Origin: Candidatus Deferrimicrobiaceae bacterium
Lineage (GTDB): Bacteria; Desulfobacterota; Deferrimicrobia; Deferrimicrobiales; Deferrimicrobiaceae
Assembly: GCA_963725055.1 (NCBI GenBank)
Contig: CAVRXE010000004.1
Location: 7,808-71,807 of the forward strand
Reading direction: 5' to 3'
DNA length: 64,000 nt
The notes under the pieces are model-generated. The model was not told the origin of the DNA and searched no databases. It was given only the letters and a program-made list of their open reading frames with translations. Positions 4,676 through 56,518 of this stretch are shown here, piece after piece; within the stretch, counting starts at the first letter, position 1, and every line of letters starts with the position of its first letter. Made by a program: the position numbers and the translations under genes.

Positions 4676-4710
4676 GGCGTTTGGGTGCGGCGAAGCGGGC
4701 GCGGGACGGG

Positions 4711-28402: not shown

Positions 28403-28560
28403 CGAACGATTTCTCCCTTTGATTGCCTCATGCCTTGAAGTCCATAATGAATCGACATCCGGAGAATGTTCTTCTTTCATACTGGCACGCCGCACTGTTT
28501 GCTACAAGAATCGCATCCCATCATTGGAAATTCCGTTCAATTCCTGCAAGGAGGAATCCC

Positions 28561-30036: not shown

Positions 30037-30053
30037 GAGGGGGGGATTCGACC

Positions 30054-30377: not shown

Positions 30378-30382
30378 AGGGT

Positions 30383-31573: not shown

Positions 31574-31596
31574 CTGCGTCTCAGTTCGGGAACGCG

Positions 31597-32364
31597 TCAG
31601 GCATCGAGGCCCAGGATCACGCTGGACGCCTTGACGAGAGCGCAGATGGGATCGCCGGTGGCCAGGAGGAGGCGGTTCGCGCTTTCCTCGGTGACGATGG
31701 CCGTCACGACGCTTCCCCCCGGAAGATCCACCGTCACCTCGGCGTTCACGGGCCCGTGCACGATCCGGCTTACCGTACCGCGCAACAGGTTCCGCGCGCT
31801 GATCTTCGCGTTGTTAATATCCTTCCCCAGGATCACGGAGCTCGCCTTGAAGAAGGCGTACGCCTCCAACCCGGGCTTCAGCCCCAGGACCCGGGCGCTC
31901 TCGTTCGTGATGACCGAGCAGAGGGTCTCCCCTCCCTTCAAGCCGATGGTGACCTCCGTGCTGACGGCCCCCTTCCGGACCTCTTTCACCTTGCCCAGAA
32001 ACACGTTCCGCGCGCTGATTCGCATGGCGACCCTCCGAAGCAAAGAGTAGAGGCGACCCACGTCCCCGAGGCGCGCCTCGAGGCGCCCGATGAACCTTTG
32101 ATGCTCGCCCTGCAGGACGCGGTACAGCCGGACCGTATCCTTCCCCTCTTCCGTAAGAATTGTACCACCGCCCCCGACGCCCCCGACCGCCCGCCGGACG
32201 AGCGGCTTTTCCGCGGCGTTGTTCATCGCGTCGACGGCGTCCCACGCCGTCTTGTAGCTGATCCCGACCTCGCGGGCCGCCCCGCTGATCGACCCGCACC
32301 GGTCGATCGCCTCCAGCAGACCGATCCGGTCCCCCCCGACGAACGTCCGGTCCGAGCGCAGCAT
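31597..32364 (-). CDS. modE: ModE-family molybdate-responsive regulator (HTH plus two TOBE/Mop domains)
   Basis: MLRSDRTFVGGDRIGLLEAIDRCGSISGAAREVGISYKTAWDAVDAMNN, then two repeats beginning ISARNVFLGKVKEV... and ISARNLLRGTVSRI.... An upstream GTG start is also possible. Confidence 0.85.
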   Translation of the reverse strand: MLRSDRTFVGGDRIGLLEAIDRCGSISGAAREVGISYKTAWDAVDAMNNAAEKPLVRRAVGGVGGGGTILTEEGKDTVRLYRVLQGEHQRFIGRLEARLGDVGRLYSLLRRVAMRISARNVFLGKVKEVRKGAVSTEVTIGLKGGETLCSVITNESARVLGLKPGLEAYAFFKASSVILGKDINNAKISARNLLRGTVSRIVHGPVNAEVTVDLPGGSVVTAIVTEESANRLLLATGDPICALVKASSVILGLDA

Positions 32365-32456
32365 GGAGAGTGTCGCCGCAATCGATACGACCCCACCCCC
32401 CCGGCGCGGCGCCGGACGCCGGGCGTCGGATAGCGAATTTTCCGCCGGGCTTCCCC

Positions 32457-33293
32457 TTAATTTTTCTCCCCCTCCTCGAACTCCATGTTCAGGAACTCCA
32501 TGTCCAGCAGGTTGAGAAACAGGATCCTTCCGTTCAGGCATCTCCCCTGCCCGAGAAGGATCTTGCAGACCTCGGCCACCTGCAGGCTGGCGACCACGGC
32601 CGGCGTGAAGGCCGGGTTCCCGAGCCGGGTCTCCACGCCCCGTTGCTCCCTGCCCGACGGATAGATGTGCCCGGAGATGTCTTCGCCGGGCATCTGGGTG
32701 GCCATCTGTCCGTACCAGCCGGCGATGGCCCCGTGCACCATCGGAATCCCCAGGTCCCGGCAGGCGTGGGCCAGGTCCATCCGGGCGGTCACGGTGTCCA
32801 GGGCGTCGACCACCGCATCGGCTCCCGAAAGCAGATCCCCGCCGTTCTCCCGGGAAAAGGAGGACCTCACCGGGATCACCCGCACCGCGGGGTTGATGAT
32901 CCCGACGCGCTCCGCCGCCGCGTCGACCTTCGGGACCCCCAGGTTCGACGGAGATGCCAGGAGCTGGCGGTTCAGGTTGTGCTCCTCGAACGTGTCGGGG
33001 TCCACCACCACGAGGGTCCCGGTACCGAGCCGGGCGAGCTCTTCGACGAGGTACCCCCCGAGGCCGCCTGCCCCGACGATCACCACCCGGGAGCGGCACA
33101 GCTTGAGCTGGTCGGCGACCGAGAGGGTCTGCCGGTTCCTCTGGTAGCGCGCCGGCATCAGCCCCAGCTCGAGCGCCGCCTCCTCGATCTGTCCGGAGCG
33201 AAGTCGAAACCGCTCCGCCGCGCCCACCTGGGCCGGCCAGGGGAGCAGGTCGCCCTGGGCGTGGGTCAGCAGGTACACGCGAAGGTCTTCCAA
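32457..33293 (-). CDS. ThiF/MoeB/HesA-family E1-like adenylyltransferase
   Basis: RVVIVGAGGLGGYLVEELARLGTGTLVVVDPDTFEEHNLNRQ... It lies directly downstream of a GG-terminated MoaD/ThiS-like gene. Confidence 0.85.
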   Translation of the reverse strand: MEDLRVYLLTHAQGDLLPWPAQVGAAERFRLRSGQIEEAALELGLMPARYQRNRQTLSVADQLKLCRSRVVIVGAGGLGGYLVEELARLGTGTLVVVDPDTFEEHNLNRQLLASPSNLGVPKVDAAAERVGIINPAVRVIPVRSSFSRENGGDLLSGADAVVDALDTVTARMDLAHACRDLGIPMVHGAIAGWYGQMATQMPGEDISGHIYPSGREQRGVETRLGNPAFTPAVVASLQVAEVCKILLGQGRCLNGRILFLNLLDMEFLNMEFEEGEKN

Positions 33294-33294
33294 C

Positions 33295-33519
33295 TTACCC
33301 CCCGCCCACCAGGGGGAAGATGGCGACGGTGTCGCCGTCCGCCAGTTCCCGCTCCCGGTCCGAGTGGCGGCCGTTGACCAGAAGGATTCCGATCTCGCTT
33401 TCGGGCAACCGCGCGTCTTCGACGAGCTTCGACACCGTCGATCCCGGGGGGACGATCCGGACCTCGATGTCGAACCGCCCCTTGCGGAATGTCGCGAACA
33501 GCTTCACCGTGATCCGCAT
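33295..33519 (-). CDS. MoaD/ThiS-family sulfur-carrier protein
   Basis: 74 aa, MRITVKLFATFRK...VNGRHSDRERELADGDTVAIFPLVGGG, ending in Gly-Gly. Its stop is 1 nt before the thiF-like start. Confidence 0.85.
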   Translation of the reverse strand: MRITVKLFATFRKGRFDIEVRIVPPGSTVSKLVEDARLPESEIGILLVNGRHSDRERELADGDTVAIFPLVGGG

Positions 33520-33566
33520 CGCGCCTCCACCGTCGCGTTATGAAGCCGCTTGATTCCCCTCCCTTT

Positions 33567-35303
33567 CTACCAGTTGAACACCTTGTCCAGGTCGTCGTCC
33601 GTCACCTGGAAGGTGACGTTGTGGGGCGGGATCGGCTCCGTGAGGAAGAAACGCGGCAGCCGGTCGTGGTGCTTCGTGAACCCGGCGCGGGTGTTGAAGT
33701 CCCGTTCCATCTTGAGGATGCTCTTCCCGAGCGCCGTAACGTCGTCCCCCGTCGTGGTGATGCCGTGGAAGGCGCCGATCATGTCCAGGAGGGCCTGGAA
33801 CGTTTCGGGCTGGTCCAGCAGGGGGAAGGCGATGAAGAGGCACATCCCGGTGGAATCGACCGCCGCCGTCGCGATCTGGAGGTTCCGGGACATCTCGACC
33901 TGTCCTTCCGGCTTGTGAGGGTCCAGGTCCCCGCCGGATTTGAGGATGTTCGGGCCCACCGAGTACCCCGCCGTGTGGTCGGCGCCCTGGGTGGTCGTCG
34001 CGTACGTCACCCCGATCCCCATGACCGACCGCGGGTCGTACGCCGCCATCGCCTGCCCCTTGACCACGGGAACCCGCTCGACCCCGAAGACCTTCCCCGT
34101 GACCTCGGCGCCGCAGCCGAGGATCCTCCCCAGCGGCGTCCCCTTCCCGATCTCCTCCACGAGCCGGATCGCCCCCGCCCCGTCGCCGAAGGGGAGCAAC
34201 CCCGCCTCCATGGCGACGCCGATGGCCGCGCCCGTATCCATGGTGTCGACGCCGAAGTTGTCGTCGAGGAAGTCGAGCCGGGCGATCACGTCGAGGTCGT
34301 CGATGCCGCAATTCCCGCCGTGCGCCCAGACCGTCTCGTACTCCGGCTGCTTCGTCACGTACTTTCCGTCCTTGTCGACATAGACCCCGGAGCACTGGAT
34401 CACGCAGCCGCGATGGCAGCCGTGGGTGGCGAGTCCTCCCCGCTTCACCTCGAGCTCCGCCTGCGCCTCCCCGCTGATCTTCGCCGCGTTCTCGAATCGC
34501 CCTGTCCGGAAGTTGTTCGTGGGGTAGCCGCCCGCCTCGTTGAGGACGTTGGTCAGGACGTTGGTGCCGTAGGCCGGGAGCCCCTCCCCGGTGATCGGGT
34601 GCTTCCGAAGCCCCTCGACGAACCGGCGGTTCGCATCCTTGAACTTCTCCGGGTCTTTGGGGGGCCGCATCTTCAACCCGGTGTCGTCCAGGATGATCGC
34701 CTTGACCCGCTTCGCCCCCATGACGGCGCCGGTCCCGCCGCGCCCGCAGTGCCGGGTCGGCCGCTTCTCCGGGTCGGTGCAGGCGATGGAGGCGGCCAGC
34801 AGCTTCATCTCCCCCGCGGTGCCGATGGTCATGTACGCCGCGCGGTCGCCGTATTGGCCCTTCAGCTTCTCGATGAGGGGGTAGTTCGGGAGATTCTTCA
34901 GGCTGTTGTCGACCGAGACCTGGACGCCGTCCTTGTTGATGAAGATCTTGTAGAGGTCGTCGCCCTCCGGCTTCCCCTCCAGCACGATCGCGGCGTACCC
35001 CAGCCTCGCCAGCACCTGCGCCGCCTGGCCGCCGGCGTTCGACTCCTTGATCCCTCCCGTGAGGGGGCTCTTGCACCCCACGGAGATCCGTCCGCTCATG
35101 GCCGCCGCCGTGCCGCTGAGGGATCCCGGGGCGATGACGAGCTTGTTCTCCGCGCCGAGCGGATGGCAGAGAGGGTGGACCTCCTTGGAGATGATCGCCG
35201 TGGTCATCGCGCGACCGCCGAGGCCGGCGAACCCGCCGACCGGTTCGGTCCGGAACTTCGGCCCGCCCTTCGCCCCCATGTCGACCCTCAGAATCTTGTC
35301 CAT
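33567..35303 (-). CDS. aor: tungsten-containing aldehyde:ferredoxin oxidoreductase (AOR family)
   Basis: MDKILRVDMGAKGGPKFRTEPV...GGRAMTTAII...SPLTGGIKESNAGG...PEYETVWAHGGNCGIDD...TYATTTQGADHTAGY...DSTGMCLF. The ATG at 35303 was chosen over the track start at 35342. Confidence 0.9.
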   Translation of the reverse strand: MDKILRVDMGAKGGPKFRTEPVGGFAGLGGRAMTTAIISKEVHPLCHPLGAENKLVIAPGSLSGTAAAMSGRISVGCKSPLTGGIKESNAGGQAAQVLARLGYAAIVLEGKPEGDDLYKIFINKDGVQVSVDNSLKNLPNYPLIEKLKGQYGDRAAYMTIGTAGEMKLLAASIACTDPEKRPTRHCGRGGTGAVMGAKRVKAIILDDTGLKMRPPKDPEKFKDANRRFVEGLRKHPITGEGLPAYGTNVLTNVLNEAGGYPTNNFRTGRFENAAKISGEAQAELEVKRGGLATHGCHRGCVIQCSGVYVDKDGKYVTKQPEYETVWAHGGNCGIDDLDVIARLDFLDDNFGVDTMDTGAAIGVAMEAGLLPFGDGAGAIRLVEEIGKGTPLGRILGCGAEVTGKVFGVERVPVVKGQAMAAYDPRSVMGIGVTYATTTQGADHTAGYSVGPNILKSGGDLDPHKPEGQVEMSRNLQIATAAVDSTGMCLFIAFPLLDQPETFQALLDMIGAFHGITTTGDDVTALGKSILKMERDFNTRAGFTKHHDRLPRFFLTEPIPPHNVTFQVTDDDLDKVFNW

Positions 35304-35367
35304 GCGCGCTCTCCTTTTCTGCCGGTTATGAAATCGGAGCATCTGTACGTGGTTGACCGCGGAAAAA

Positions 35368-35385
35368 GCAGCAATACCTGTGCCG
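35368..35385 (-). promoter_or_regulatory. sigma-54 (-24/-12) promoter of the aor operon
   Basis: The minus strand reads CGGCACAGGTATTGCTGC. The GG and GC have exactly the TGGCAC-N5-TTGC spacing, with the first T replaced by C. The -12 GC lies about 68 nt upstream of the aor ATG. Confidence 0.75.
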
Positions 35386-35872
35386 TCACCGGGCGCGGAT
35401 CGGTCCCATTTCGTGCCCCGGGCGCCGCTTCGGTCCCCGAGAGGGGGCGGCCGGTCGCATCCATTGTTTTATTTAATGCAGTGTCTCTGATAATACTCGT
35501 TATTACAAGCAATCGCCGCATCCGTGGAGATCCGCCATCCCCGCCAGGCAGGAACCCGGCGGCCCCGCTCCCGAGCAGGGGATGGGCCGCGAGGGTAAAA
35601 TTCCATGATTTACAACTCTTCACCGGGGCCGGCGCCGTCCCGACCGGATGCGGCGGAGCGCCCTCTCGTCCCATTATTGCACACGGGCGAGACGGTTCCG
35701 GCCGGCTCAGACCCGAATCCGGGAAAACATGAAACCGCGTTCTGTTTTACTTTTATCGTCACCTGTATCGTCCCCTGGAGAACGGTGCGGAATCACGGAG
35801 CCGCCGCAACACACGTTTCTTCCTCCCGAACAGGAAATCTCCGGTACGGATGGTGCATAATGATAAGTTAAT

Positions 35873-36007
35873 ATGATGATCGATACCTACGGCAGGAAGA
35901 TCAACTACCTGCGGCTCTCCGTCACCGACCGGTGCAAGGGCAAACATCGGCTCTGCGAGGAACCGTCCGGACCGTCGCCACTGGACATGTCCAGGGTCGG
36001 TGGTTGA
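35873..36007 (+). pseudogene. remnant of a moaA-like (GTP 3',8-cyclase) N-terminus
   Basis: A 44-codon ORF not in the track: MMIDTYGRKINYLRLSVTDRCKGKHRLCEEPSGPSPLDMSRVGG-stop. The GRxIxYLRLSVTDRC text is the MoaA N-terminus, but the CX3CX2C cluster reads CX3HX2C and the frame stops about 20 codons later. Confidence 0.6.
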
Positions 36008-36013
36008 GCCGCC

Positions 36014-37315
36014 GTGCCTCTTCCACCCGCACAGCGGGAACACCCGTCCAAGCTGTTCGTCGAGGTGACCACCCGCTGCAACATGAGTTGCTCCATGTGC
36101 GTAAAGCAGACCTACGGCGGCGGTTCCCCCGAGGGGGACCTTTCGCTGCCGTTGTTCGAAGCCCTCTCCCCCGCGTTCCGGGGGCTTGAAGCGCTGATCC
36201 TGAACGGCGTCGGTGAGCCGCTTCTCCACCCGCGGCTTGAGGAGATGGTCCGCACGGCCCGGGAGCGGATGCCAAGAGAGGGGTGGGTCGGCTTCCAGTC
36301 CAATGGGCTCCTTCTCACCGACAAGCGTGCCGTATCCCTTGCATCCGCGGGCCTGGACCGGATCTGCTTCTCCATCGACGGCGTGGCGCCGGAAACGTTC
36401 CGCAAGGTCCGAGGGGGGGGCGAGATCGAAGGCGTCGAGCGGGCGCTTGCGGCTACGGCCGCCGCGAAGAACCGGTGCGGGCGCCCGGATCTGCAGGTCG
36501 GAGTGGAGTTCGTGGTCATGCGCGGCAACGCGCGCGAACTCCCCGACGCGCTGCGGTGGTCGGCCGCCCGTGGCGCGACGTTCGCCATCGTTACGCACGT
36601 CCTCCCCTACGACCCGTACCACGGCAAGGAAGCCGTCTTCGAGAGGAACACCGACGAGGCGATCGCGATCTTCCGGGAGTGGGAGAAGAAGGGACGAACG
36701 GAAGGGTCGGACATCCACCGGTACTTCGACATCCTCTGGAAATACTCCAAAACGCCCGAAGAGATCAGGGTCCTCCGGTTCGTCGAGGCCATGAAGGCGG
36801 ACGCGATTGCCCGGGGCGTCTTCCTCGACATGAAGAAGCTCCTGTCGGTCGATAGGGGGCACGTCGATGAAATCGCCGGCATCTTCGCCGAGGCGGCGGA
36901 AGTGGCCAGGACAGAGGGGCTCGACCTCCGCCTTCCGGGCGTCTTCCTGAAGGAGAAGAGAAGCTGCAGCTTCGTCGAGGAGGGAGGGGCGTTCGTCTCG
37001 TGGCAAGGGGCGGTCTCCCCGTGCTACTTCCTCTGGCACCGGTACTCCTGCTTCGCGCACGGGTGGAAGCAGCCGGTGCGACCGAAGGTGTTCGGGAAGC
37101 TGGAGGAGAGGGGGATCCTGGAGATATGGAACGACCGCGAATTCCGGGAGTTCCGCGAAAACGTGATCAGATACGACTACCCGTACTGCTCCAGCTGCAG
37201 CCTCGCCCCGTGCGACTACGTCCAGACCGAGGGGTTCGAGCAGGATTGCCATATACGGAACGTCCAGTGCGGCAGCTGCATGTGGTGCATGGGCGTGTTC
37301 CAATGCATGCGCTAG
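36014..37315 (+). CDS. radical SAM/SPASM protein of the kind found next to AOR genes (tungsten-cofactor oxidoreductase maturase-like)
   Basis: SKLFVEVTTRCNMSCSMC (CX3CX2C), GEPLLHP, and a Cys-rich C-terminus CYFLWHRYSC...YPYCSSCSLAPCDYV...CHIRNVQCGSCMWCMGVFQC. It is divergent from aor. Confidence 0.75.
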   Translation: MPLPPAQREHPSKLFVEVTTRCNMSCSMCVKQTYGGGSPEGDLSLPLFEALSPAFRGLEALILNGVGEPLLHPRLEEMVRTARERMPREGWVGFQSNGLLLTDKRAVSLASAGLDRICFSIDGVAPETFRKVRGGGEIEGVERALAATAAAKNRCGRPDLQVGVEFVVMRGNARELPDALRWSAARGATFAIVTHVLPYDPYHGKEAVFERNTDEAIAIFREWEKKGRTEGSDIHRYFDILWKYSKTPEEIRVLRFVEAMKADAIARGVFLDMKKLLSVDRGHVDEIAGIFAEAAEVARTEGLDLRLPGVFLKEKRSCSFVEEGGAFVSWQGAVSPCYFLWHRYSCFAHGWKQPVRPKVFGKLEERGILEIWNDREFREFRENVIRYDYPYCSSCSLAPCDYVQTEGFEQDCHIRNVQCGSCMWCMGVFQCMR

Positions 37316-37344
37316 GACGGGGGATATCCCCCGACAGACACGGC

Positions 37345-38712
37345 TCAGACGATGCCGTTTTCCATTAACTTCTTCAGCTGTCGCCCGTCCAGCCCGAGGT
37401 GCTTCCGGTAAACGGACGCGTTGTCCGCCCCGATGGGCCGGCACACCCACTTGATCCTCCCCGGGGTCCTGGACATCGACTTGAACGTCGAATTCTGGAC
37501 CAGCACCTCTCCGTAGTTCGGGTCGTCCACCCGGACGAACGTCTTCCGGACGGCCCAATGTTCCCGTTGCAGGACGTCCCCGGAGGTTTCGAGTCTCCCC
37601 GTGACCACCGTCCCCTTCTTGTCGGGCTTTTTGCTGTACGCGGTGATCATCTGCTGGATCTCGTCCGACGTGTAGCGCACCGTGAACTGTTCGATCTCGT
37701 GCTGGATGGTGGGCTGATTCTCCGGGGTAAGCCGCTCGCGGATGGACGGAAACCGTTCCCGAAGATCGGGACGGTTCATGATATCGCACAACGCGGACCA
37801 GTTCGGGTCCGAGAAACCGGAGATGAAGGTGAAGCCGTCCCTGCACTTCACGTACGTATAAGGGAAAACGGCATAGTCGTAATTCCCGGCCCGGGGCATC
37901 TGCCGCCCCGACATGTGGAAATATTGCATGACGTAATTGGAGATCGCCATCAGCCCTTCCGGCGGCGACGCGTCGATGAACTGCCCCACCCCCGTTTTCC
38001 GCCGGTGGAACATCGCCGTCTGGATCCCGAACGCAGCCCAGGCGCCGCCGGCGTACCACCCCATCCAGTTCCCCTGCTTCAACGGCTTCTTGCACGCATC
38101 CGGCACGGCGGGGTCGAGGTCCGGCTCGCCGGTAACCGACATGATGACGCCCCTCGCCTGGTCGACGATGTCGTAGTCCGGCTGGTTGGAACACGCTTCC
38201 GAATCGGCCCCGAACTGACCGTACGTGTGGATGGCGGTGAAGATCAGCCCGGGGTTGCTTTCACGAAGGTCGCCGTACCCCAGCCCGAGAGCCTCCAGGT
38301 ACCCCGGCTTGAAGGTGTGGATCAGCACGTCGGCTTTCCTCGCAAGGCCCAGAAAAAGCTTCTTCCCCTCCTCTTTGGCGATATCGAGGGTAACGTGGTG
38401 TTTGTTCCGTCCTTCCACGATGTATCCCAGTCCCGCGTCCCCGATCATGATCCCGTAGGGGGTCATCTTCCTGGCAAGGTCTCCCCCGGGCGGTTCGACC
38501 CGGATCACCTCCGCTCCCATTTCGGCGAGCAGCGAAGAGGCGAGGAGCCCGGCGAAGCTCCCGTAGCTCAGGTCCAGGACGAGCGTGTCGTCGAGGGCTT
38601 CCGGTTTTCGGGAGGCCTCCCCGGGGTCCGTTTCCCGATGCGCCCACTTCGCGTATTCCCGGTTCGCCGACAGGCCGACGATGTTCGAATCGTCCATTTT
38701 CCCACCCTCCAT
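37345..38712 (-). CDS. family III (CaiB/BaiF) CoA-transferase, subunit/paralogue 2
   Basis: 455 aa: [35 protein letters not shown]...[23 protein letters not shown]...[14 protein letters not shown]. Confidence 0.85.
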
Positions 38713-38740
38713 CCGTCGTCTCCGGAATCTTCCGGCCGGG

Positions 38741-40075
38741 TCAGGGAACCTTTACTCCGGATTTCCCGTCCCAGCCCGGAGGCGGACATTGCGAGGGGAC
38801 GTCCGGATTCCACCGGAAAACGACACCCTCGTCCTCGAGCATTTTTATTTCTTCCTCCGGCAGTCCCAACATTTTCCCGAGTACGTACCGGTTATCGAAC
38901 CCCAACGGCCGGCAACTCCACTTCACCCTGCCGGGGGTCTCGCTCATCACGGGGGGGTAGCACTGCTGCACCATGTTTCCGTAGAGGGGGTCCTCGTATT
39001 CCTGGATGGCGCCGCGCTCCCGGGAGTGGTCGCTGCGATAGACATCCTTCGCTTCCAGTACCCGGGACGCGGCGAACCCGTGCTTGCAGGCAAGCGACTC
39101 CACTTCCTCCACGCGACGGCATACGGCCCAGACGGCGATCCGATCGAGCAGTTCCCTGGCGTTCCCGTCCCGCAACCGCTCCAGGGGATCACGATACTTT
39201 TCATACAGGTCCATCTGCGCCATCGCCTCGCAAAGACCGCGAAACTCCGCCTCGCTGAACGCCGCGAGCGCCACCCTCCCGTCGAGACAGTCGAACAGGT
39301 CCGACGGGCAGATCGCCAGGTCCCGGTTCCCCGACCGCTTCCTGTCTTCACCCGTCTTGAACGAGTAGAGCCAGGTCCAGTCGAGCAGCCGGATGACGTT
39401 CTCCACCTGGAGATAGTCGATGAACTGTCCCTCGCCTGTCCTTTCCCTGTAGTTCAACGCGGACAGGATCGCGTTGGCGCACATGAGGCCGGTGATCCAG
39501 TCGGCGATCCAGACCCCCGACTTGATCGGGCCGCGGTCCTCGAAGCCCGTGATCGATGCCAGGGCGCCCATGCTCTGGGCCACGGCGTCGTAGGATGTTC
39601 TCCCCGTCCACGGCCCCCAGCTCCCGTAACCGGAGACGTGCAGCTGGATGATCTTCGGATTCACTTCCCGCAGGGCCCTGTAGTCCAGACCCCACTCCGC
39701 CATTCTCCCGGGGGTCAGGTTGTCGACGACCACGTCCGATTTCTTCACGAGCTCCAGGAACAACGCCCTGGCCTTGGGGTTCCCCACGTGCATCCCCACC
39801 CAGTATTTATTATGATTCTCGATTTCCAGTCCCGGGGACATCCCCTTCCAGAAATAGGCATAGGGGGTCACGTACCGCATCTGGTCCCCCTTCCGCCCCT
39901 CGAACTTGATCACCTCCGCGCCGAATTCCGCCAGGTAGTCGCACGTGGCGGGCCCCAGAACCACGGAGCAGACCTCCAGAACCCGCACGCCTTTCAGCGG
40001 CTCCGGCTTGTCGAAGAGTTTTTCCTTGTCGAACAGCTCGCCAATGATATCCGTTCGCGACGCTTCCTTGGCCAT
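38741..40075 (-). CDS. family III (CaiB/BaiF) CoA-transferase, subunit/paralogue 1
   Basis: 444 aa: [30 protein letters not shown]...[23 protein letters not shown]...[13 protein letters not shown]. The start codon lies 4 nt from the polypurine tract (minus-strand sense). Confidence 0.85.
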
Positions 40076-47482: not shown

Positions 47483-48220
47483 TCACCCGTACTGCTCCCT
47501 CAATATTTCCCTCAGGGTGTCCAGATCAGCGTCGGGGAACTCTTTGAGCAGGCATGCGATCGCGCCCGAGACCCGCGCGGCGGCAAAACTGTTTCCGCGG
47601 AAATTCCTCTCCCGTGGGAGACCCGGCAGGGAGCGGGGAAACGGGGAAGCAAGACACTCGCACGGATTGTCCGGGCGGTACAGCAACTGATCCTCCCTGA
47701 GCCGGCCGTCTCCCTTCACGCCGATGACCGAATCGTAGGAGGCCGGAACGCTTGCCCCCTTCGACCCGTTCCGCGCGGCCGCCACCAGGATGATCCCTGC
47801 CCTCGCCGCATCGCGGCACAGGGCGCGCAGGGTAGGGGCGTTCGGCGCCGCCGCCATCCCCAGGCTGAGATTCACCACCCGCGCCCCCGCCTGCAGAGCA
47901 TAGGACAACGCCCCCTCCAGAACGTCCGGTGTCGTGGCGAGGGCGCCGTTGAAGACCTTGAGGGCGAAGAGATCGGTTTCCGGCGCCACGTGACGGATCA
48001 CCGCGGCGATGGCCGTTCCGTGACCGGACGTGTCCTGATAGTCCGGCCCCCGATGGACCGCGCCGTCCTCGCCGCGATAGATCCTGGCCCCGTCGATCCT
48101 CCCTCCGACGTGGGAGTGCCGCGGGTTGACGCCCGAGTCGACGACGACGACGCGGACTCCTTTCCCTGCGGGAGTCCCGGAAGGGCGGGCGCCCCAGGGG
48201 ATCGCGCGCCTTCTACGCAT
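47483..48220 (-). CDS. qhpE: subtilisin-like (S8) serine protease, QhpE-type leader peptidase
   Basis: Uninterrupted frame. The triad context is VVVVDSGVN (Asp), SGHGTAIAAVI (His) and GNSFAAARVSG (Ser). It is small, has no signal peptide, and its ATG at 48220 overlaps the qhpF stop by 8 nt. Confidence 0.8.
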   Translation of the reverse strand: MRRRRAIPWGARPSGTPAGKGVRVVVVDSGVNPRHSHVGGRIDGARIYRGEDGAVHRGPDYQDTSGHGTAIAAVIRHVAPETDLFALKVFNGALATTPDVLEGALSYALQAGARVVNLSLGMAAAPNAPTLRALCRDAARAGIILVAAARNGSKGASVPASYDSVIGVKGDGRLREDQLLYRPDNPCECLASPFPRSLPGLPRERNFRGNSFAAARVSGAIACLLKEFPDADLDTLREILREQYG

Positions 48221-49955
48221 GGCTTCCCTCCGGATCCCGCGCGCCGTCGGCGCAGACGCGAAGGAACGATTTGTACGCACCCCGCTGTTGCATCAGTTCC
48301 TCATGGGTTCCCAGGTGACTGACCCGCCCGTCCGAAAGGACCACGATCCGATCCGCATCCCGGACAGCGTGGATCCGGTGGGTCACGATCAGGGTCGTCT
48401 TCCCCTCCATCGTCTCCTTGATCGCGCACCGGATGCGATCTTCCGAGAGGAGGTCGAGGAAGGAGGTCGCCTCGTCGAGAATGAGAATCTCCTGGTTCGT
48501 GCAGGAACGCCCGGGCAAGTGCCACCCGCTGCCGCTGCCCCGCGGAAAGGGACAAGCCCCGCTCGCCGGCGACGGTCGAAAGACCGCGCGGCAGGGAGCG
48601 GACGAACTCCGTCAAGTTGGCCTTGGCGATGGCATCCGCGATCCGCGCGGGGTCGGCTTCGGGCGTTCCGTACCGGATGTTCTCCTCGAGGGTGCCATGG
48701 AAGAGGTACGGTTCGGTGGAGACCAGTGCGATCCGCCGCCGGAGCGTCGCGCGGCGAGCGCGTCCCAGGGGGACCCCGTCGAGCCGGATCTCCCCGCCTT
48801 GCGGCTCGTAGTAGCGGAGGAGCAGGTCCACGAGGGTCGATTTCCCGACGCCGCTCTCCCCGACGAGCGCCACCGTCCTGCCCGCGGGGAGGGTCAGCGA
48901 CATGCCGTCGAGGACACGGGCCTCGCCGCCGTAGGCGAAGACCACGCCGTCAAAGACGATCCCTTCCTTCAGGGAGACGAACTCTTCCGCTCCTTCAGGG
49001 TCGTCCTCCGCGGGGACGTCGAAAAACTCGAATACGCGCGTAAGCGATGCCCTTCCTTTCCGCAACGCCGCGTACTGGCCGAGGAGGTTCTGGATCGGCG
49101 CGATCACTTGCATCTGGAAGGCGGCGAACGCCACAAGCGTCCCCACGGAGATCGCGCCGTCCCGGACCAACCGTGCCGCCGTAGAGGAAGGCGAGCGTGG
49201 CGGAGCACCCCAGCACGAACGAGGGGATCCCGCGGGACAGGGAGAAGATCGTCTGGAATCGGAGGACGGAGCGCACCAGCGACTGGTTCTCTTCCCTCGA
49301 ACCTCCGCAGTCGGTGGCATTCCGTGGCGCTGGACCGCACCAGTCGGATTCCCGTGAAGGTGTCGATGATGCGGGTCCCCACCGCCGCGTTCTTTTCCCG
49401 GATCTCGCGGCTCATACCCGTGATCACGTTGCGGGTCAACCAGAGGCCAAGCACGCCCAACGGGGACGAGGACATTGCTCACGAGAAAGAGAGACCAGGA
49501 CATGGCGACGAGGATGGCGGAGGCGACGACGAGCCGGACGGAACTGGTGACGAACGCCATCGGGACGTCCACGAGAATCCCCGGACCTCCACCATGTCGT
49601 TGTTGAGCCGCGCGACGATCTCCCCCACCCGCGTCCTCCCGAAGAAGCGCATCTCGGCGCGCTCCAGATGATCGAAGAGGGCGACGCGCATGGCGACGAG
49701 GATCTTCGACGCCCCACGCGTGTAGAGATAGCTGCTGACGCCGCCGAGGACCATCCCCGCGGCGGCGTAAAGAACCATGGTGAGGAGAAGGGGGCAGAGC
49801 GCCGCCCAGTTCCCGCGGAGGATGACGTCGTCCACCAGCCTCTTCGACAGGAACGGGGCGTACAGGGAAGCCGCCGTCGCGAGAAGGGAAAGGGCAAACG
49901 TCGCGGCGAGAATCCCCCTGTGCCGGGTACGACTAATCTCCACAAAGTATGCCAT
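48213..49955 (-). pseudogene. qhpF: ABC exporter (fused permease-ATPase), QhpF-type, about 4-5 frame disruptions
   Basis: N-terminal TM region MAYFVEISRTRHRGILAATFALSLLATAASLYAPFLSKRLVDD.... The NBD has VALVGESGVGKSTL, LSAGQRQRVALARAF, ILILDEATSFLD and TLIVTHR. Confidence 0.8.
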
Positions 49956-49963
49956 CCGCCTTG

Positions 49964-51002
49964 TCACGACGCCGCTTCCCGGTAGTAGCAAATGTAGCGC
50001 GCCTCGCAGAATTTCGGCGTGTTCCGGAGCGCTACGGCCTTGGGGGGTGCCCGCTTCCTCCCGGGGGGGCTCCCCGCTCCACCAGGTCGAGGACCCCGCG
50101 AACCACCTGGAGGCTCACGAGCTTCCGGTAGCAGGAAGTACCGCGCCCGGAGATCTTGAGGGAGGTCACCCCCGTGCGGGCGAGGTCGAAGAGCGCGCAG
50201 AGCCCGCAGGGACCGTTCGGGATCCCGCCGGGATTCATCGAGTTGCCGCAGCCGTTCTGGAACCAGACCCAATCCTTGAACGCGCCCATCAGCTCCCGCG
50301 CCCGCTCCCCTTCCGGGCGGGACATGGATCCGCTGGCTCTCCCCCCAGCGAAAGGACACGGTATGGGACCTCCGGCAGCCCGCACGCAAAGGGCCCCGAC
50401 GCTCCGGTGCGTGGTCATGCAATACCCTTCCTCGAAGACGCACCCTTCGTTCAGGACGAACACCTCGGTCTCCAGCCGGCCCGCTGCCGTATCGCAAAGG
50501 GCCGCGATGTCCGCCACACCGAGGCTGCGGGGGAAGATCACCCGCCGGACCCCCAGCTCCGCCAGGAAATCGACCATGCCGGGGTTGAGCGTCGCCATCA
50601 CCGAGGCCGGCGTGGACGGAGAGCCCCGGGAAGGCGCACCGCAGCGCCACCAGGAATCCCACGTCGGAGACGATGACGCCGTCGATCCCGGACTCCCGCA
50701 CGAGCCGGCCGATCACGGGAAGGAGGAACTCCTGCTGTTCCGGCGTGTAGTAGGGGGTGTTGAACGTCACGTGGGACAGGGATGCCGAAGGCATGGGAAC
50801 GCTCCGCCAGGAGGGAGACGTCGTCCCGCTGAACCAGGTTCCCCACCACCGGCCCCCTTCGATTGAGCCAGAAGGCGCCACCGTACCGATCGAGCCATTC
50901 TCGGGGAACGTAGCCGCAGAAGAACTCGCCCGCCCCGTTCTCGGCGAGCATCTCCACCTCTTCGGGGTTGCTGACCGGTACGGTGAGCTTCATCTTCGCC
51001 AC
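49964..51002 (-). pseudogene. U32-family protein, UbiU/RlhA/TrhP-like, about 3 frame disruptions
   Basis: MAKMKLTVPVSNPEEVEMLAENGAGEFFCGY..., ...GIDGVIVSDVGFLVAL..., ATLNPGMVDFLAELGVRRVIFPRSL, EVFVLNEGCVFEEGYCMTTH (C-X6-C) and GVTSLKISGRGTS. It ends 8 nt before the qhpF start. Confidence 0.65.
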
Positions 51003-51959
51003 CCATGACCGTCGCCCGGTACGGTGACGACGGTACCGTCGACCTGCCGGGAGGATGAAATCCGTCCAAGGATTCTCCCGGTGATGGAGGGCGGCACGTT
51101 GTGGTAATACGCGTTCCCGAGATTCAGGAGATTTTTCTCCTTCCCGTTCCCCCCGGGAACGGGAAGGAGGAACTCAACGGCGTACTTCCGGCACTCCGAC
51201 CGGCAAGGAGCGCCCGGGATGAATTTTTCTCCGGGTTCCCGGTGCATCGCCCCCAGCAGGCAGGCGCGACCCATGGTGACGAAGAGGTACGGAAAGTGAA
51301 CCGATACTTTTTCGGACCGGTCCCCCTCGACTCGTCCGCCTCGAGAGGCTGGAGGAACGGGTCGACTTCCCTGCGTCCGATACCGTACCGCGCCATCAAG
51401 GCCCGGAAACCCGGGGCGAGTTCTCCCGATCGGCAGAGCGCCGCCCGGGCGGCCGATCCGCGCCTGCCGGGAATCGAAATAGTCCCGCGAGCCGGGGATC
51501 GCGGAGCATCTTGTGCGTCAGGCGGCCCAGGACGATCGTGAGCCCCGGGTGGAGGGATCTCAGGCCGTGAACCGTCCCCCAGTCGTTCGCGACGACTTCG
51601 GACTCTTCCACGCCATCCAGCGCCCGGACCGCATCCTCCGCCTTCGCGAGGCCGTCCCACGAGAGCGGCGGCAGGACGAGGGACAAGGCGAGTCGCCCCT
51701 CCCGCGTCGACACGACCCAGGAGGCGATCGCCCTGGGCGTCGGGAGGAGCCGTTCACACGTCTCGTTGCCGACGTACACCCGCGACGGTACCGCTCCGGG
51801 AAGGTGCCGAAGGAGCGCCTCGGCGAGCGCGTCGTGCGCATCGCCTGATGCGGGGCCGTGCAACGCTTCCCTCGAGGGAAGCCTCCCCGCGAAGGACCGC
51901 GGGCGGCGGGGCGGCGAGGAAGGGGAAGGAGAGTCCCACCTCCACGCAGTGCCCCGCAC
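50990..51959 (-). pseudogene. U32-family protein, UbiV-like, about 3-4 frame disruptions
   Basis: ...SRVYVGNETCERLLP..., SEVVANDWGTVHGLRSLHPGLTIVLGRLTHKML, and FPYLFVTMGRACLLGAMHREPGEKFIPGAPCRSEC (C-X17-C-X3-C). The start is uncertain (51939-51959), and the stop overlaps the next U32 gene by 13 nt. Confidence 0.55.
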
Positions 51960-52016
51960 CCTCCCGCGGGGACGCCTCCCGGTGCTGCCGGCTCAGGAGC
52001 AAACGGCCGCGCCCCC

Positions 52017-53100
52017 CTACCGTTTCTGGACGCGGAAGTGCGTGAGGACCGCGTCTCCCGGGGTGTCGATTCTCTTCAACAGCTTCATCGTTTCCGAGTC
52101 GTAGATCAAGATCGTGTCGCCGCCGCCGCCAAGGTACAACTTCTTCCCGTCGGAACTGATCTGGATCGTGTAGTAGCTCTTGTCCAGGTCGGCGGCGGTT
52201 TTCAGCACCCGGTTCGTCGCGAAATCCCTCTTCTCCACCGTGTTGAGGACGGTGTAGTAATACTTGCGGTCGGGGGAGATGACTCCCGAAAACTGGATGT
52301 AGAAGGGCCCGATGTCGGTCACGAGCCTCATCGACCCCTCCGTGCTCTTCTTCCGGAGATCGACCGGACACCCTGGTAGATTAGGTTGTTGTTGCTGTTC
52401 TGACTGCCGACCAGGATCATCGCCATCCCGGACTGGTCGTGGAGCCGCCAGATGTTCAGGGAGATCTGCGGGTCGACGCCGGTTGTCGTCGGGTGGCCGA
52501 TCCCGAGGAAGTTCACCTGGCTTCCCGGTCATGGGGTCGTAGAGGCGGCGAACACATCGCGACCGGTGACGTAGAATTCGCTTCCGTCGTACCCGAAGAA
52601 GATGTTCGTGCAGCCGCGCGGGATCTCGATCTCCTTCACGACCTTGCCGGTCGTGAGGTCCAGCACCAGCACCGCGGGCGTCATGTCGACGATCTCGTCG
52701 GAGAGCCACCGCTGCCGCAGGGAGAGGGCGTACAGCAGGTTCGGGTTCGCCGGGTTGAGTCGATGTCGAGAGTCCGGACCTTGACGTCCCCCGATCCCAT
52801 GCGGAACGTGCGGACGACCTTCTTCCCCGCCAGGTCGAGTCGTTCGATCTGCTGCCCCCAGTCGGTGATGGTGTAGACCTTGTCCAGGTCCCTTGGGTCC
52901 CAGGTGAAGTTGGTGACCTTCTTCCCCTTGGTTTCAATCGTCGCGCAGATGATCTCGTCCTTGTCGCCGTCAATGACGTTAAACTTGTTGTGGAGCATCC
53001 CCTGAAGGAGGATGTCCTTGCCGAGTGCCGGGGCGTTGCCCGAGGCGAGCAGCAGGGCCGTCCCGAGCAGCACCATCGCGAAAAAGACCGTTCTCTTCAT
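52017..53100 (-). pseudogene. qhpB: quinohemoprotein amine dehydrogenase beta subunit (beta-propeller), about 4 frame disruptions
   Basis: Signal peptide MKRTVFFAMVLLGTALLLASG. Also present are ...VTNFTWDPRDLDKVYTITDWGQQIERLDLAGKKVVRTF... and the C-terminus YYTIQISSDGKKLYLGGGGDTILIYDSETMKLLKRIDTPGD. The position directly after qhpC matches the qhpADCB order. Confidence 0.7.
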
Positions 53101-53120: not shown

Positions 53121-53477
53121 TTATTCCCTAGTCGTTGATCGCGCCGCCGCGACCCACCACTCCGGCTTGACGACCTTGAGCTTCACCCAGTTCTTCATCG
53201 CCCGGGTGCAGTCGGCGTTCCAGTCAGGGTTGTTGTAGGTATCCGGCGCCTGCCCCGGCCACCAGCAGTACATGTCGGTGGTGCCGAACAGGTCCGTCTC
53301 GATCGGCGTGCACAGTCGCTTTGTGGAGCCGGTCCAGTCGTTCTCGTAGCCGGGGTTGAACACGGAAGTGCAGGTGTGCATGAAGGGGACGATCCCCTGC
53401 GCCTCCACGACCGGAGCGCCCGGGTCGGTCTTCTCGATCTTCCTGCCCTTGCGGTTGACCCCTTTCAGGTGCTTCAT
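53121..53477 (-). CDS. qhpC: quinohemoprotein amine dehydrogenase gamma subunit precursor (crosslinked, quinone-bearing small subunit)
   Basis: Uninterrupted 118 codons: a leader of about 29 aa (MKHLKGVNRKGRKIEKTDPGAPVVEAQGI) followed by VPFMHTCTSVFNPGYENDWTGSTKRLCTPIETDLFGTTDMYCWWPGQAPDTYNNPDWNADC.... The ATG overlaps the qhpD stop (ATGA). Confidence 0.85.
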   Translation of the reverse strand: MKHLKGVNRKGRKIEKTDPGAPVVEAQGIVPFMHTCTSVFNPGYENDWTGSTKRLCTPIETDLFGTTDMYCWWPGQAPDTYNNPDWNADCTRAMKNWVKLKVVKPEWWVAAARSTTRE

Positions 53478-54902
53478 GCGATCCCCCTTTCGCCGAGCAT
53501 CACGTCCAGAAACGTCGGCGTTTCGTTTTGTATGCGGACATAGGCTTGAAGACCCAGCAGGAACAGCTCCCTCTGATCCAACGGCAGTAGTGGACGGAAG
53601 GGGCGAAGAGGTCTCCGTGTCGGAGGTACGCGTCGTGGTAGCACCCCCCCGAGCAGAAGTTTTTCGCCCAGCAGGCGTCTCATGCGCGGATTCGCGGCGC
53701 CGCCTCGCCCCGTCGAGGAACCGGGCCCGGGCCTCTTCCCAGAATCCGGCTTCCGGGCCGCCGAACGAGTCCCCGATGCCGACGAGACGGTGGCACGGGT
53801 AGAAGGCCCCCGATGGGTCCACGGCCAGCATCCCGATCCCCGCCCCGCACGGATACGGCATCGGGTCCCCGCGGTGGATCAGCGCGAGGATCTGCGACAT
53901 GTTCGAGAATGCCGGGACCCGCCGTTCGCGGACGTCGTCCACATACCCGTCTGCAAGGTCCCGGAACCGATCGATCACCGCGCAGACCTCTTTCCTCGGT
54001 CAGCGCGACTGGACTCCCTTCCGCAGCGCTCGCCGGCGCGAAACCGACCTCGTCGAAACCGAGGCCGCGAAGGCGGTTGAACGTCTTCCGCACGTCGACG
54101 GCGCCGCGCCCGAGGGTCACGCGCGCGCCGCGACGGGGAACCCGTTTCTGTTTTCCATCAGGAGTTCGATCCCCCGCGTCACGTCCTCATAGGACCCTCT
54201 CCCCGACGCGTACGGACGGTTCCGATCTTGGATCTCCCGGGGCCCGTCGATGCTAAGACACACGGTGACTCCGTTCTCCTTCAGGAAACCAGCGATCTCC
54301 CGGGTGAGGAGGGTGCCGTTGGTGGTGATGGAGAAGGAGATCTCTTTTCCCCGTTCCCTCGCCATCCTGCGGGCCTCCCCGACGGCCGTTCCAATGAGGG
54401 GGGAAGCGCAGCAGCGGTTCCCCCCCAAAAAAGGTCACGGACACCTTCCGGTCCGCCCCGGCGCGTTCCAGCAGATACGCAACACCGCGGCGGAGCGACT
54501 TCCGGGGACATCTCCCGCGGCGCTCCTCCCCCATCCGCCGGTAGGGTGCACCCTTCCTCCCGGTCCTCGTAGCAGTAGCGGCACGCGAGGTTGCAGGAGT
54601 AGGTGAGCATCAGTACGAGTGTCCCGAGCCGCAGCGGAGGGTGGGCAACACGGTTGGCTCGCCTCCTCCCCAAACCCCTCTGCTTGAAGCAGGCCCGCCC
54701 TCCGGAGGTCCGAGAGGATCTCCGAAGGAAGGGCCGAATCTTCGGCAGAAGCAAGGGGAGACAAGGCCTCCCTCATCCCGTCGTCCATACGGAACAGCCC
54801 GCCGGTTTCGGCGGCGTATACGTACGCCTCCCCATCCGCCGTGAAGCGTCGGTGCGGGAGGAGAGAGGCGCCCGCGCCGCACGTACGCGCGATGTTTGCC
54901 AT
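53474..54902 (-). pseudogene. qhpD: radical SAM/SPASM thioether-forming enzyme QhpD, about 6 frame disruptions
   Basis: MANIARTCG...GEAYVYAAETGGLFRMD, LGTLVLMLTYSCNLACRYCYE (CX3CX2C), VSVTFFGGEPLL, ISFSITTNGTLLT. The SPASM part reads PYPCGAGIGMLAVDPSGAFYPCHRLVG and CWAKNFCSGGCYHDAYL...HYCRW. Confidence 0.85.
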
Positions 54903-54918
54903 GGCGTCCGTGCGCCCC

Positions 54919-56518
54919 TTACTGCACCGGTCTCTGGACGTACAGAGGAATGGTCGCGAGCAGGTATCCGCGGGCGAACAGCGTGCCGCCCCCGGGCGCT
55001 GCGTAGGAAGCGGTCACCCAGACGTCCCCCAGGTTGTTTTCCTGCATGAAACGCTTCGGGTTGGGGCCTTCGTCCCCGGGGGTGAAGAGCCCGTTCCGGT
55101 CGATCTTCCCGACGAAATCCACATCGTGATCATCGTTGGTGGCGGCGATCTCCACGACATTCCACGTGGCCGGTACGTGTCCGATCTCGATGTCGTCCCC
55201 GGTCCCCGCCGCGCCGTCGGCGCCCTTGCTGTACGACATGGCGTCGAACTGGACGAGCTGCTTCACGGCGTACCCCAGCCCGCCGGTGCGCGACATCGCG
55301 GGGGACGGCACGACCTTGATATAGTCGACGGCCGTGTAGACCGCGAAGACATTGTCGGCCGAGGCGCCTCCGGCGTTCGCGTTCCGGTGCCCGGTGGTCG
55401 CCTTGTCAGCGACATCCACGGCGACCACCACCTTCGTCGGCGATGCGGAAACGACGTTCTTCACGGTCACGCCTTCGCCCAGACTCACCTCTTTCGAGAG
55501 ACCGGTCCCGACGACCGTCACGGTCGCTCCCTTCGTCCCGGCCTTGAGCGCCTTCGGCATCACGGAGAGGATCCGCGGGCAGCTCCCGGCGAAGGCGCGG
55601 GTTTCAACACCGCGAAGCTCGAAGTGCGGGTCGTCAAACCGGACCCCCCTGAAGGTCGAACCATCCATCGAGATGTGGAAGACTTCACGGATCGGCTTTC
55701 CGGCCAGGGAACCGGACGCCCGCCACGCGTAGCCGCCATAGAGGGTCGCCTTCCCCGAGATCGGCAGCTTCTCCCGTTCTCAAACTCCACCGTTCCGGCG
55801 TATGTATAGAAGGCGTCTCCCGTCTTCTTCAAGTTGATCTCGCCTCCGTACGCCCCTTTCCCGGCCTGGTACCCGGCGACGGCCCACTTCCCCTCGCCCG
55901 CCTTCGGGCGCGACGCGCTCCACTGCTTCCATTCCGGAGTCTCCAGCGGGAACCGCTTCTGCAACTCCTTCACGCAGGCGGCCAACGTCTCGTCCCAGTC
56001 AAGGACGTCCTGGAGTTGGTAGGGCCACATCGGGAGGACGCCCGAGTGCATGTTGGCGAGTTTCGGCCAGTCTTCCGGGGAGCGGCGCTGGAGGGCGGTC
56101 TTCTCTGCGGTAGCCCTGTGGCACCGTACGCAGATGTCGACGATCACCTGGCTGTCCACCTTCTCCTTCGTGTCCCGCTTCTCGAGAGTGTAGGCATACC
56201 CCACCACCTCGGCGGGGGCCAACCCCTGCTTGTCGGAGAAGTAGAGGAGGAGTGCCTCCTTCTCCTCCTTGGTGATGGAGAGACCGTGGATCCGCTTGTG
56301 GCGCCACAACGTCTCCTCCCAAGCTTCCGGCACCTGCCGGAGGTAGGAGATCCGGGAGACCAGCCCCCCGTTGTTCTTGTGGCAGTCGGCGCACTTTTTC
56401 ACGACCAGGTCGCTTGAGACCGGAATCCCCTGGTCTTGCCGAGTGCAGTCCCGGCCCACGCCGTCGCCAGCAAGAATGCCAAGGCAACGATAAAACACAA
56501 TCCCATCTTCCTTCGCAT
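54919..56518 (-). pseudogene. qhpA: quinohemoprotein amine dehydrogenase alpha subunit (di-haem cytochrome c), about 3 frame disruptions
   Basis: AGGAGGAGAGTG then ATG, giving the signal MRRKMGLCFIVALAFLLATAWA. It has two CXXCH sites (KKCADCH, ICVRCH), RRSPEDWPKLANMHSG, and C-terminal Ig-like domains in ORF 54919-55668. Confidence 0.85.

Follow-up and report, generated by a model that had tools for sequence, protein, structure and literature searches.

The 64,000-nucleotide stretch of Candidatus Deferrimicrobiaceae DNA analysed here in full (contig CAVRXE010000004.1, positions 7,808 to 71,807; hereafter the window) carries on its minus strand a quinohemoprotein amine dehydrogenase (QHNDH) locus in the order qhpA-qhpD-qhpC-qhpB-gene A-gene B-qhpF-qhpE, with start and stop codons that overlap or nearly abut. 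The genes qhpA, qhpB, qhpC, qhpD, qhpE and qhpF are all present and contiguous, as judged from NCBIfam models (matches to QH_alpha, quino_hemo_SAM, QH_gamma, QH_beta and QhpE, in addition to an ABC exporter) and from tblastn coordinates. The subject of this contribution is genes A and B, which were noticed in a first-pass annotation made from the sequence alone. This annotation read both as members of the U32 family and proposed that they provide an anaerobic route to the tryptophylquinone cofactor of the enzyme. The presence of two genes between qhpF and qhpB, the stop codon of which is at 52017-52019, was confirmed. With starts supported by homologues, gene A most likely begins at a TTG codon at 52002, so that 14 nt separate it from the end of qhpB, and not at 51959, the N-terminal extension being kept at the protein level among homologues. 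Gene A overlaps gene B by 4 nt (ATGA; gene B starts with the ATG at 50993, not with the GTG at 51002), and the gene B stop overlaps the GTG start of qhpF by another 4 nt (GTGA), as it also does in a related contig, L001. The 13-nt overlap and 8-nt gap reported previously arose from other choices of start codon.

Both genes are disrupted as assembled, as had been seen before, but so are all their neighbours: every qhp gene between 47400 and 56600 is frameshifted, with one to three or more switches each, and genes elsewhere in the window are affected too. Gene A contains at least 4 frame switches (near 51873, 51480, 51445 and 51328) and gene B at least 5 (near 50774, near 50608, a compensating pair at about 50390-50330, and one at about 50070). 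Such numbers would be expected if the two genes were decayed pseudogenes and the locus encoded no functional enzyme in this genome. The neighbours are equally broken, yet 61-93% amino acid identity to L001 or to the closest intact homologues is kept across the frames, and at least one of the shifts, near 50774, is an extra C in a run of C, which is expected of long-read consensus errors. Orthologues are also found undamaged: intact ones of about 75-83% identity exist in the same gene order, and in L001 (74 kb) all eight genes are intact, in the same order, and are followed by DUF1329, DUF1302, MMPL and BNR genes as in the window. Gene decay is thus very improbable. Because identity is kept across frames and a base was gained within a C-run, the frameshifts look like unpolished long-read consensus error.

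Stitched across its frames, the gene B product matches PF01136 (Peptidase_U32) with 89.8 bits against a cutoff of 22.4, and for this gene the U32 assignment stands. Its intact 340-aa homologues, up to 83% identical, all match PF01136 as well (129 bits for the orthologue in an Aromatoleum metagenome-assembled genome (MAG), L074). The best NCBIfam matches are UbiU and TrhP, both under cutoff. Gene B was rejected as a UbiU, model NF047963 scoring 55 bits with the window protein, 66 with the homologue P0014 and 87 with the L074 protein against a cutoff of 440 (560 for the E. coli UbiU control), and as a TrhP, that model scoring 47-73 bits against a cutoff of 534. The motifs NEGCVFEEGYC (C-X6-C) and LKISGRG, noticed earlier, are present. 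In the alignment with UbiU, C186, C193 and C204 coincide with its ligands C169, C176 and C193, and over 19 qhp-linked orthologues C26, C186, C193, C204, C264, C267, C331 and C337 are invariant. As for the fourth ligand, C250 is found in 18 of these 19 and is missing in relatives from Heliomicrobium and gut bacteria; C264 and C267 are the alternatives. The cysteines C264, C267, C331 and C337 (CxxC...Cx5C) do not occur in UbiU and are kept even in relatives outside qhp loci and in natural fusions (see below), which suggests a second iron-sulfur (Fe-S), zinc or other metal site in these proteins. In a neighbour-joining tree, from which the Desulfocucumaceae pair was left out, the qhp-linked gene B products (U32B) form one clade, and the pairs of Heliomicrobium undosum and of gut bacteria fall outside it. 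The Heliomicrobium pair (L003 9110-11008) has no qhp genes nearby, nor does the pair of a Desulfocucumaceae MAG (L089 6155-8045), the neighbours of which are POR/IOR-like and FrhB genes. A widespread contig of gut type (L006 6644-8966), also devoid of qhp genes, encodes a 447-aa A-like protein and a U32 protein beside a LysR gene and a pyridoxal phosphate (PLP) decarboxylase gene.

The assignment of gene A to the same family could be kept only in part. The window protein matches no Pfam or NCBIfam model, and none of 10 homologues matches PF01136; the UbiV model NF047965 (cutoff 275 bits) does not match gene A proteins and gives 363 bits with the E. coli UbiV control. Intact homologues of 315-335 aa, about 81% identical, are annotated "hypothetical protein", and a profile search finds 1365 relatives at E<=0.001 among 1.84 billion representative proteins. 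Among the weak Pfam matches of 63 family members PF01136 is the only family that recurs (4 of 63, best E 0.0045). The family aligns with many-protein U32 profiles over its N-terminal 80-110 columns (hhalign probability 94-95%, E 1e-7 to 5e-8). Against E. coli UbiV alone the hhalign probability is very low (0.7-1.9%), yet four cysteines fall in register. An alignment of 63 sequences with 27% mean identity has 11 invariant columns, and four of these are cysteines, C63, C227, C246 and C250 in the numbering of the homologue P0194, which sit in GNETC, GRAC, PC and SEC and form the pattern CXnCX18CX3C. The motifs VYVGNETCERL and GRACLL...PCRSEC read in the first pass are all there, the spacing being C-X18-C-X3-C and not C-X17-C-X3-C. 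The residues in register are C39, C180, C193 and C197 of UbiV, i.e., the 4Fe-4S ligands of that protein (CXnCX12CX3C; PMC6747719). UbiU/UbiV-like cysteine motifs are kept in both genes after frame correction, with ambiguity as to the fourth ligand of gene B. In addition, gene A and Peptidase_U32 domains are naturally fused in two proteins, P0410 (705 aa) and P0414 (677 aa), where the former domain spans residues ~34-290 and the latter ~417-649; both proteins group in the tree with the proteobacterial qhp-linked U32B.

Structure prediction did not settle the U32 membership of gene A, because the Protein Data Bank (PDB) holds no usable U32 reference, its U32 content being essentially one fragment, 5D88. 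An AlphaFold2 model of P0194 built from the 63-sequence alignment (pLDDT 91) consists of alternating beta and alpha elements and gives only weak, generic TIM-barrel matches in a fold search of the PDB. A model from a 13-sequence alignment (pLDDT 61) also gave only weak TIM-barrel matches, and gene A profile searches against PDB sequences returned noise only. From the cysteine register, the profile matches, the weak Pfam matches and the fusions, gene A is therefore best described as a remote, UbiV-like relative of the U32 family and not as a recognised member of it.

In canonical loci the tryptophan of cross-linked QhpC, the precursor of cysteine tryptophylquinone (CTQ), is dihydroxylated by the flavin adenine dinucleotide (FAD) monooxygenase QhpG, which strictly uses O2 (PMC7876137). 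The QhpG reference was validated by NCBIfam NF049967 (432 bits) and by PDB entry 7CTQ. With 38 QhpG queries there is no tblastn match at E<=0.01 in the window or in 15 loci with the pair, nor is there a phmmer match in the window, so the earlier statement that no flavin-monooxygenase-like reading frame is visible in the window is borne out as far as QhpG is concerned. To compare loci, qhpC was taken as the anchor: a QhpD-based homologue search gave only close relatives of Deferrimicrobia type, and an alignment of QhpC that included PDB sequences was used instead, with one genome per species. Eighty loci, viewed ±10 kb, were kept and annotated by phmmer and hidden Markov models, and 56 of them are well flanked, with at least 6 kb on both sides. 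Of these, 34 contain QhpG only (a further 3 contain a weak QhpG-like protein), 9 contain the pair only, one, from Aromatoleum (L074), contains both, and 9 contain neither. QhpG is thus present in 1 of 10 well-flanked loci with the pair versus 34-37 of 46 without it, a negative association with Fisher p = 5e-5 (3e-4 with strong QhpG matches only), uncorrected for phylogeny. The first-pass annotation had proposed to look for mutual exclusion of qhpG and U32 pairs. The negative association holds, and strict exclusivity was rejected since both occur in L074 and in several metagenome loci. The pair-only loci come from MAGs of Deferrimicrobiota type, an Acidobacteria MAG, Terasakiella, Magnetospirillaceae, Acetobacteraceae and other alphaproteobacterial MAGs; one more, with shorter flanks, is on an Ectothiorhodospiraceae contig. 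These loci hold all other known qhp maturation genes and no hydroxylase candidate besides the pair. A separate observation concerns Candidatus Binatia (L056, L080 and L084), where a complete set is accompanied by an additional qhpA-qhpC-qhpB set that has no qhpD of its own, and neither QhpG nor the pair is found within 10 kb.

The association was also followed from the other side, by scanning metagenomes with proteobacterial gene A sequences. Among 25 well-flanked pair-anchored loci, 21 (84%) carry qhpA/B/C/D, one has F/E-like genes only and 3 have none. The linkage is still seen at identities as low as 35-43%. It extends over about seven lineages and at least six gene orders, with Deferrimicrobiota, Desulfobacterales, Acidobacteria and Alpha-, Beta- and Gammaproteobacteria represented, and in each locus examined the two genes adjoin or overlap. 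With the pair written as A'B', the order is ADCB-A'B'-FE in Deferrimicrobiota, ADCBFE-A'B' in Alphaproteobacteria, A'B'-ADCBFE in Ectothiorhodospiraceae and DC-A'B'-FE in Acidobacteria. A deltaproteobacterial MAG (L005), whose U32B is 38% identical to that of the window, has ADCB-A'B'-F followed directly by a gene for a tungsten-type aldehyde:ferredoxin oxidoreductase (AOR). In the Aromatoleum MAG qhpFEG, qhpADCB, a porin gene, an aldehyde dehydrogenase gene and then the pair follow each other on one strand, and two homologues at 39-43% identity adjoin qhpF/qhpE-like genes (Desulfobacterales, L091 and L008). The cassettes of Acidobacteria type, qhpD-qhpC-A-B-qhpF-qhpE (L023 8481-14834, L168, L169 and L171), contain no alpha or beta subunit gene detected in the locus. 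In L023 a DAHP synthase-prephenate dehydratase fusion is encoded 4.7 kb upstream (3756-5438), possibly by coincidence, given the role proposed for prephenate below.

It is conceivable that the pair is a UbiU/V-like anaerobic hydroxylase of a small molecule of the amine pathway, or of a respiratory quinone, and is merely co-regulated with qhp. The best NCBIfam matches of gene B are, after all, UbiU and TrhP, in the Aromatoleum MAG the pair comes after the porin and aldehyde dehydrogenase genes and not after a maturation gene, and related pairs exist without qhp. This is quite unlikely in view of the UbiU scores of 55-87 bits against 440 and the lack of any UbiV match of gene A, where both E. 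coli controls exceed their cutoffs, of the position of the pair between qhpB or qhpC and qhpF with overlapping codons in Deferrimicrobiota, L005 and Acidobacteria, of the 84% of well-flanked pair loci that carry qhp genes, and of the separate clade formed by the qhp-linked proteins. The name of the U32 family and the vicinity of the leader protease gene qhpE and the exporter gene qhpF would also accord with a genuine peptidase function, in which the QhpC leader or a misfolded precursor is processed or proof-read. There is little chance of this: a leader protease is already supplied by QhpE, which is present in all pair-type loci, the conserved four-cysteine motifs point to Fe-S chemistry, and a protease would not be expected to be negatively associated with the hydroxylase QhpG.

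Given the gene identities, the conserved cysteine motifs, the conserved operon linkage and the absence of qhpG from the loci, we infer that genes A and B encode an O2-independent peptidyl-tryptophan dihydroxylase for CTQ biogenesis, and we put the probability of this at about 0.6. As its two subunits, the proteins would make up a cytoplasmic iron-sulfur enzyme that resembles UbiU/UbiV and serves specifically in QhpC maturation. UbiU and UbiV form a heterodimer with one 4Fe-4S cluster per subunit that is needed for O2-independent ring hydroxylations (PMC6747719, PMC10990095), and prephenate is the oxygen donor in the O2-independent hydroxylations of aromatic rings with which UbiU/V, RlhA and TrhP have all been linked (PMC10990095). 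In the proposed pathway QhpD would first install three Cys-Asp/Glu thioethers in QhpC, after which the A-B complex, presumably a heterodimer carrying Fe-S clusters, would carry out two O2-independent hydroxylations on the indole ring of the tryptophan in CWWP, taking the oxygen, by analogy with UbiU/V, from prephenate. This would be the step that QhpG performs with O2 in Paracoccus. Modified QhpC would then be exported by QhpF, its leader removed by QhpE and the cofactor completed in the periplasm. Neither the gene A nor the gene B protein has an obvious N-terminal signal peptide, which fits action before export by QhpF. By performing the step of QhpG without O2, the pair would replace QhpG in Deferrimicrobiota and several Alpha- and Gammaproteobacteria and back it up under anoxia in loci of Aromatoleum type; such coexistence would resemble that of UbiI/H/F alongside UbiU/V.

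Alternatively, the pair may be a qhp maturation factor for some other step, for instance the Cys-Trp cross-link, the oxidation of dihydroxy-Trp to the quinone or electron transfer to or from QhpD under anoxia, with Trp hydroxylation left to another, unseen enzyme. The linkage data tie the pair to qhp and not to a particular step, the pair co-occurs with QhpG in L074, L106, L144 and L149, the Fe-S clusters of UbiU/V have been proposed to form an electron-transfer chain (PMC10990095), and the four extra invariant cysteines of U32B could form a second redox site. Such a role is unlikely, since pair-only loci offer no hydroxylase candidate among their otherwise complete set of known maturation genes, every characterised U32 relative has been linked to the hydroxylation of a ring, and the negative association with QhpG is what substitution, not a separate step, predicts.

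The sequence of the presumed substrate bears on the dihydroxylase proposal as well. Proteobacterial QhpC from loci with the pair contains the motif LYGC(A/S)DPCWWPAQVPD, identical to that of QhpC from QhpG-type loci, so that the substrate is presumed to be the same for the pair and for QhpG. In the window QhpC, aligned to PDB sequences 1JJU_C and 1JMX_G, the quinone Trp of CWWP is present and the equivalent of Cys37 is Thr. The same holds for all loci of Deferrimicrobia type (the window, L001 7525-7848 and L009-L012), which read GTTDMYCWWP and not the canonical GC(A/S)DP-CWWP; these proteins retain the three QhpD cross-link pairs and have acquired a Cys about 19 residues downstream of CWWP (NADC). 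Both cysteines are present in QhpC of Binatia, Acidobacteria and L005, and the motif difference was rejected as a mark of pair-type loci because only the Deferrimicrobia type differs. Since Deferrimicrobia QhpC is devoid of the Cys that forms the CTQ bond, its cofactor may differ from canonical CTQ, perhaps with a quinone that is attached through another cross-link or through none.

Several points weigh against the assignment of a dihydroxylase function. To our knowledge, a protein substrate has no precedent in the U32 family. The match of gene A, which is not a recognised U32 protein, is confined to about 110 N-terminal columns and its fold matches are weak; gene B offers more than one candidate for its fourth Fe-S ligand; and the window copies of both genes are frame-disrupted. 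QhpG is found together with the pair in 4 of the 21 qhp-carrying pair-anchored metagenome loci and in L074, nine well-flanked qhp loci have neither, and related pairs without nearby qhp occur in Heliomicrobium undosum, the Desulfocucumaceae MAG and gut bacteria. With ±10 kb visible per locus, qhpG may lie elsewhere in the pair-only genomes, the genome of the window included. No U32 hydroxylase activity has been reconstituted in vitro (PMC10990095). Finally, Deferrimicrobium is a predicted facultative anaerobe, the genomes of which encode aa3, cbb3 and bd oxidases (PMC9386147); oxygen is therefore not obviously unavailable to these bacteria, and a strictly anaerobic lifestyle was rejected as support for this genus.

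The coordinates of the locus are collected in Table 1 together with those of a tungsten-type AOR, the presence of which in the window, noted in the first pass, was confirmed. The AOR is a likely consumer of the aldehyde made by QHNDH. It belongs to a group of genes downstream on the same strand (27395-40075, minus) that also encodes a Zn alcohol dehydrogenase, MoeA, a ModE-like TOBE/HTH regulator and two family III CoA-transferases, and this cluster plausibly provides an anaerobic route from amine through aldehyde and acid to the CoA ester.

Table 1. Features of the window. Coordinates of the qhp genes were obtained by tblastn with the intact proteins of the related contig L001.
Feature	Coordinates	Strand	Evidence
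qhpA, QHNDH alpha (dihaem) subunit	54919..56518	-	TIGR03908 on two fragments; three tblastn high-scoring segment pairs in three frames, 78-89% identity to L001 QhpA; frameshifted
qhpD, radical SAM/SPASM thioether maturase	about 53477..54911	-	TIGR03906 on fragments; tblastn with L001 QhpD; heavily frameshifted
qhpC, gamma subunit and cofactor precursor	53157..53477	-	NF037958, E 2e-24; 93% identity to L001 QhpC
qhpB, beta subunit	52017..53100	-	TIGR03907; tblastn in three frames; stop codon 52017-52019; frameshifted
gene A, UbiV-like putative partner subunit, ~335 aa, unnamed family	50990..52002	-	81-82% identity to intact 335-aa homologues; stop codon 50990-50992
gene B, U32-family putative subunit, ~340 aa	49964..50993	-	PF01136, E 2e-25; 83% identity to intact 340-aa homologues; ATG at 50993, stop codon 49964-49966
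qhpF, ABC exporter	48213..49967	-	ABC transporter models; tblastn with L001 QhpF; N-terminus VTRR as in L001; frameshifted
qhpE, subtilisin-like leader protease	47483..48280	-	NF049966 QH_SP, 160 bits (just under the cutoff of 165), E 4e-47; 86% identity to L001 QhpE
Tungsten-type aldehyde:ferredoxin oxidoreductase (AOR)	33570..35342	-	Pfam AFOR_N and AFOR_C

The idea of an anaerobic tryptophylquinone route that runs through the pair has gained support from the linkage, the negative association with QhpG and the cysteine motifs. It also appears to be new, as was suspected at the outset: none of the full texts searched connects U32 proteins to qhp, QhpD, QHNDH or tryptophylquinone, and NCBIfam has models for QhpG, QhpR and QhpE and none that names either protein of the pair. 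O2-independent hydroxylation of U32 type is known as such, and what would be new, as far as can be judged from sequences, is the partner family, the class of protein substrates and the involvement in a pathway to a protein-derived quinone. For CTQ, a 2025 review lists only QhpG/QhpA, LodB and GoxB (PMC11951088).

The question is of some importance for the physiology of these enzymes. QHNDHs work in anaerobically grown denitrifiers, and here the locus lies in the same window as an O2-sensitive tungsten AOR. All routes to tryptophan-derived quinones known to us (QhpG, LodB/GoxB and MauG) need O2 or H2O2, and the pair offers a directly testable answer. In Aromatoleum aromaticum QHNDHs are described as starting anaerobic amine degradation (Schmitt 2019, as cited in PMC11231019). 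If the proposal is correct, prephenate-type O2-independent hydroxylation would be extended from lipids and RNA to proteins, a large family without a Pfam or NCBIfam model would acquire a function, and anaerobic heterologous production of QHNDH would become possible. The same family would supply candidate enzymes for anaerobic Trp hydroxylations that are unexplained so far, e.g., those of methyl-CoM reductases, where 6- and 7-hydroxy-Trp are found (PMC11951088). Taken together, we give slightly better than even odds to a broader picture. In it, the pair would be the first Fe-S enzyme to hydroxylate a protein side chain by prephenate-type chemistry without O2, and would open an anaerobic route to a tryptophylquinone. 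The gene A family, with about 1400 representative clusters and with members in the qhp-free pairs of Heliobacteria, Desulfocucumaceae and gut bacteria, may stand for a broader group of anaerobic hydroxylases that act on other substrates, and the product in Deferrimicrobia may be a variant quinone.

The enzymes that make CTQ or tryptophan tryptophylquinone (TTQ) from peptidyl Trp elsewhere, i.e., the flavoproteins LodB and GoxB and the dihaem protein MauG, share this outcome with the proposed function of the pair, but they use O2 or H2O2 and show no sequence relationship to it. QhpG, the peptidyl tryptophan dihydroxylase of known structure (PDB 7CTQ), is closer in context: it is encoded in the same operon and presumably acts on the same QhpC residue in the same compartment, the cytoplasm, before export, whereas its fold is unrelated, its cofactor is FAD and its requirement for O2 is obligatory. 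The greatest resemblance is to UbiU-UbiV (YhbU/YhbV of E. coli). In both cases neighbouring genes encode a clear member of the U32 family and a partner that has diverged further. The motif CXnCX(12/18)CX3C of the partner (X12 in UbiV, X18 in gene A) starts with a Cys that lies far upstream of the others, a CX6C...C motif in the U32 subunit aligns with ligands of UbiU (CX6CX16CX38C), and the pair occurs beside or instead of an O2-using flavin monooxygenase that acts on an aromatic ring. The two systems are nevertheless not orthologous. Gene B is about 20% identical to UbiU and has four additional invariant cysteines (CxxC...Cx5C), gene A has no detectable PF01136 domain, no UbiT-like gene was noticed near the pair, and the presumed substrate is a Trp in a cross-linked 9-kDa protein and not a prenylated phenol. 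RlhA and TrhP, which are required for ho5C2501 in 23S rRNA and ho5U34 in tRNA, respectively, are single-protein systems from different U32 subfamilies and act on RNA; in common with the function proposed for the pair, a U32 domain in these proteins goes with prephenate-linked, O2-independent hydroxylation of a (hetero)aromatic ring within a macromolecule.

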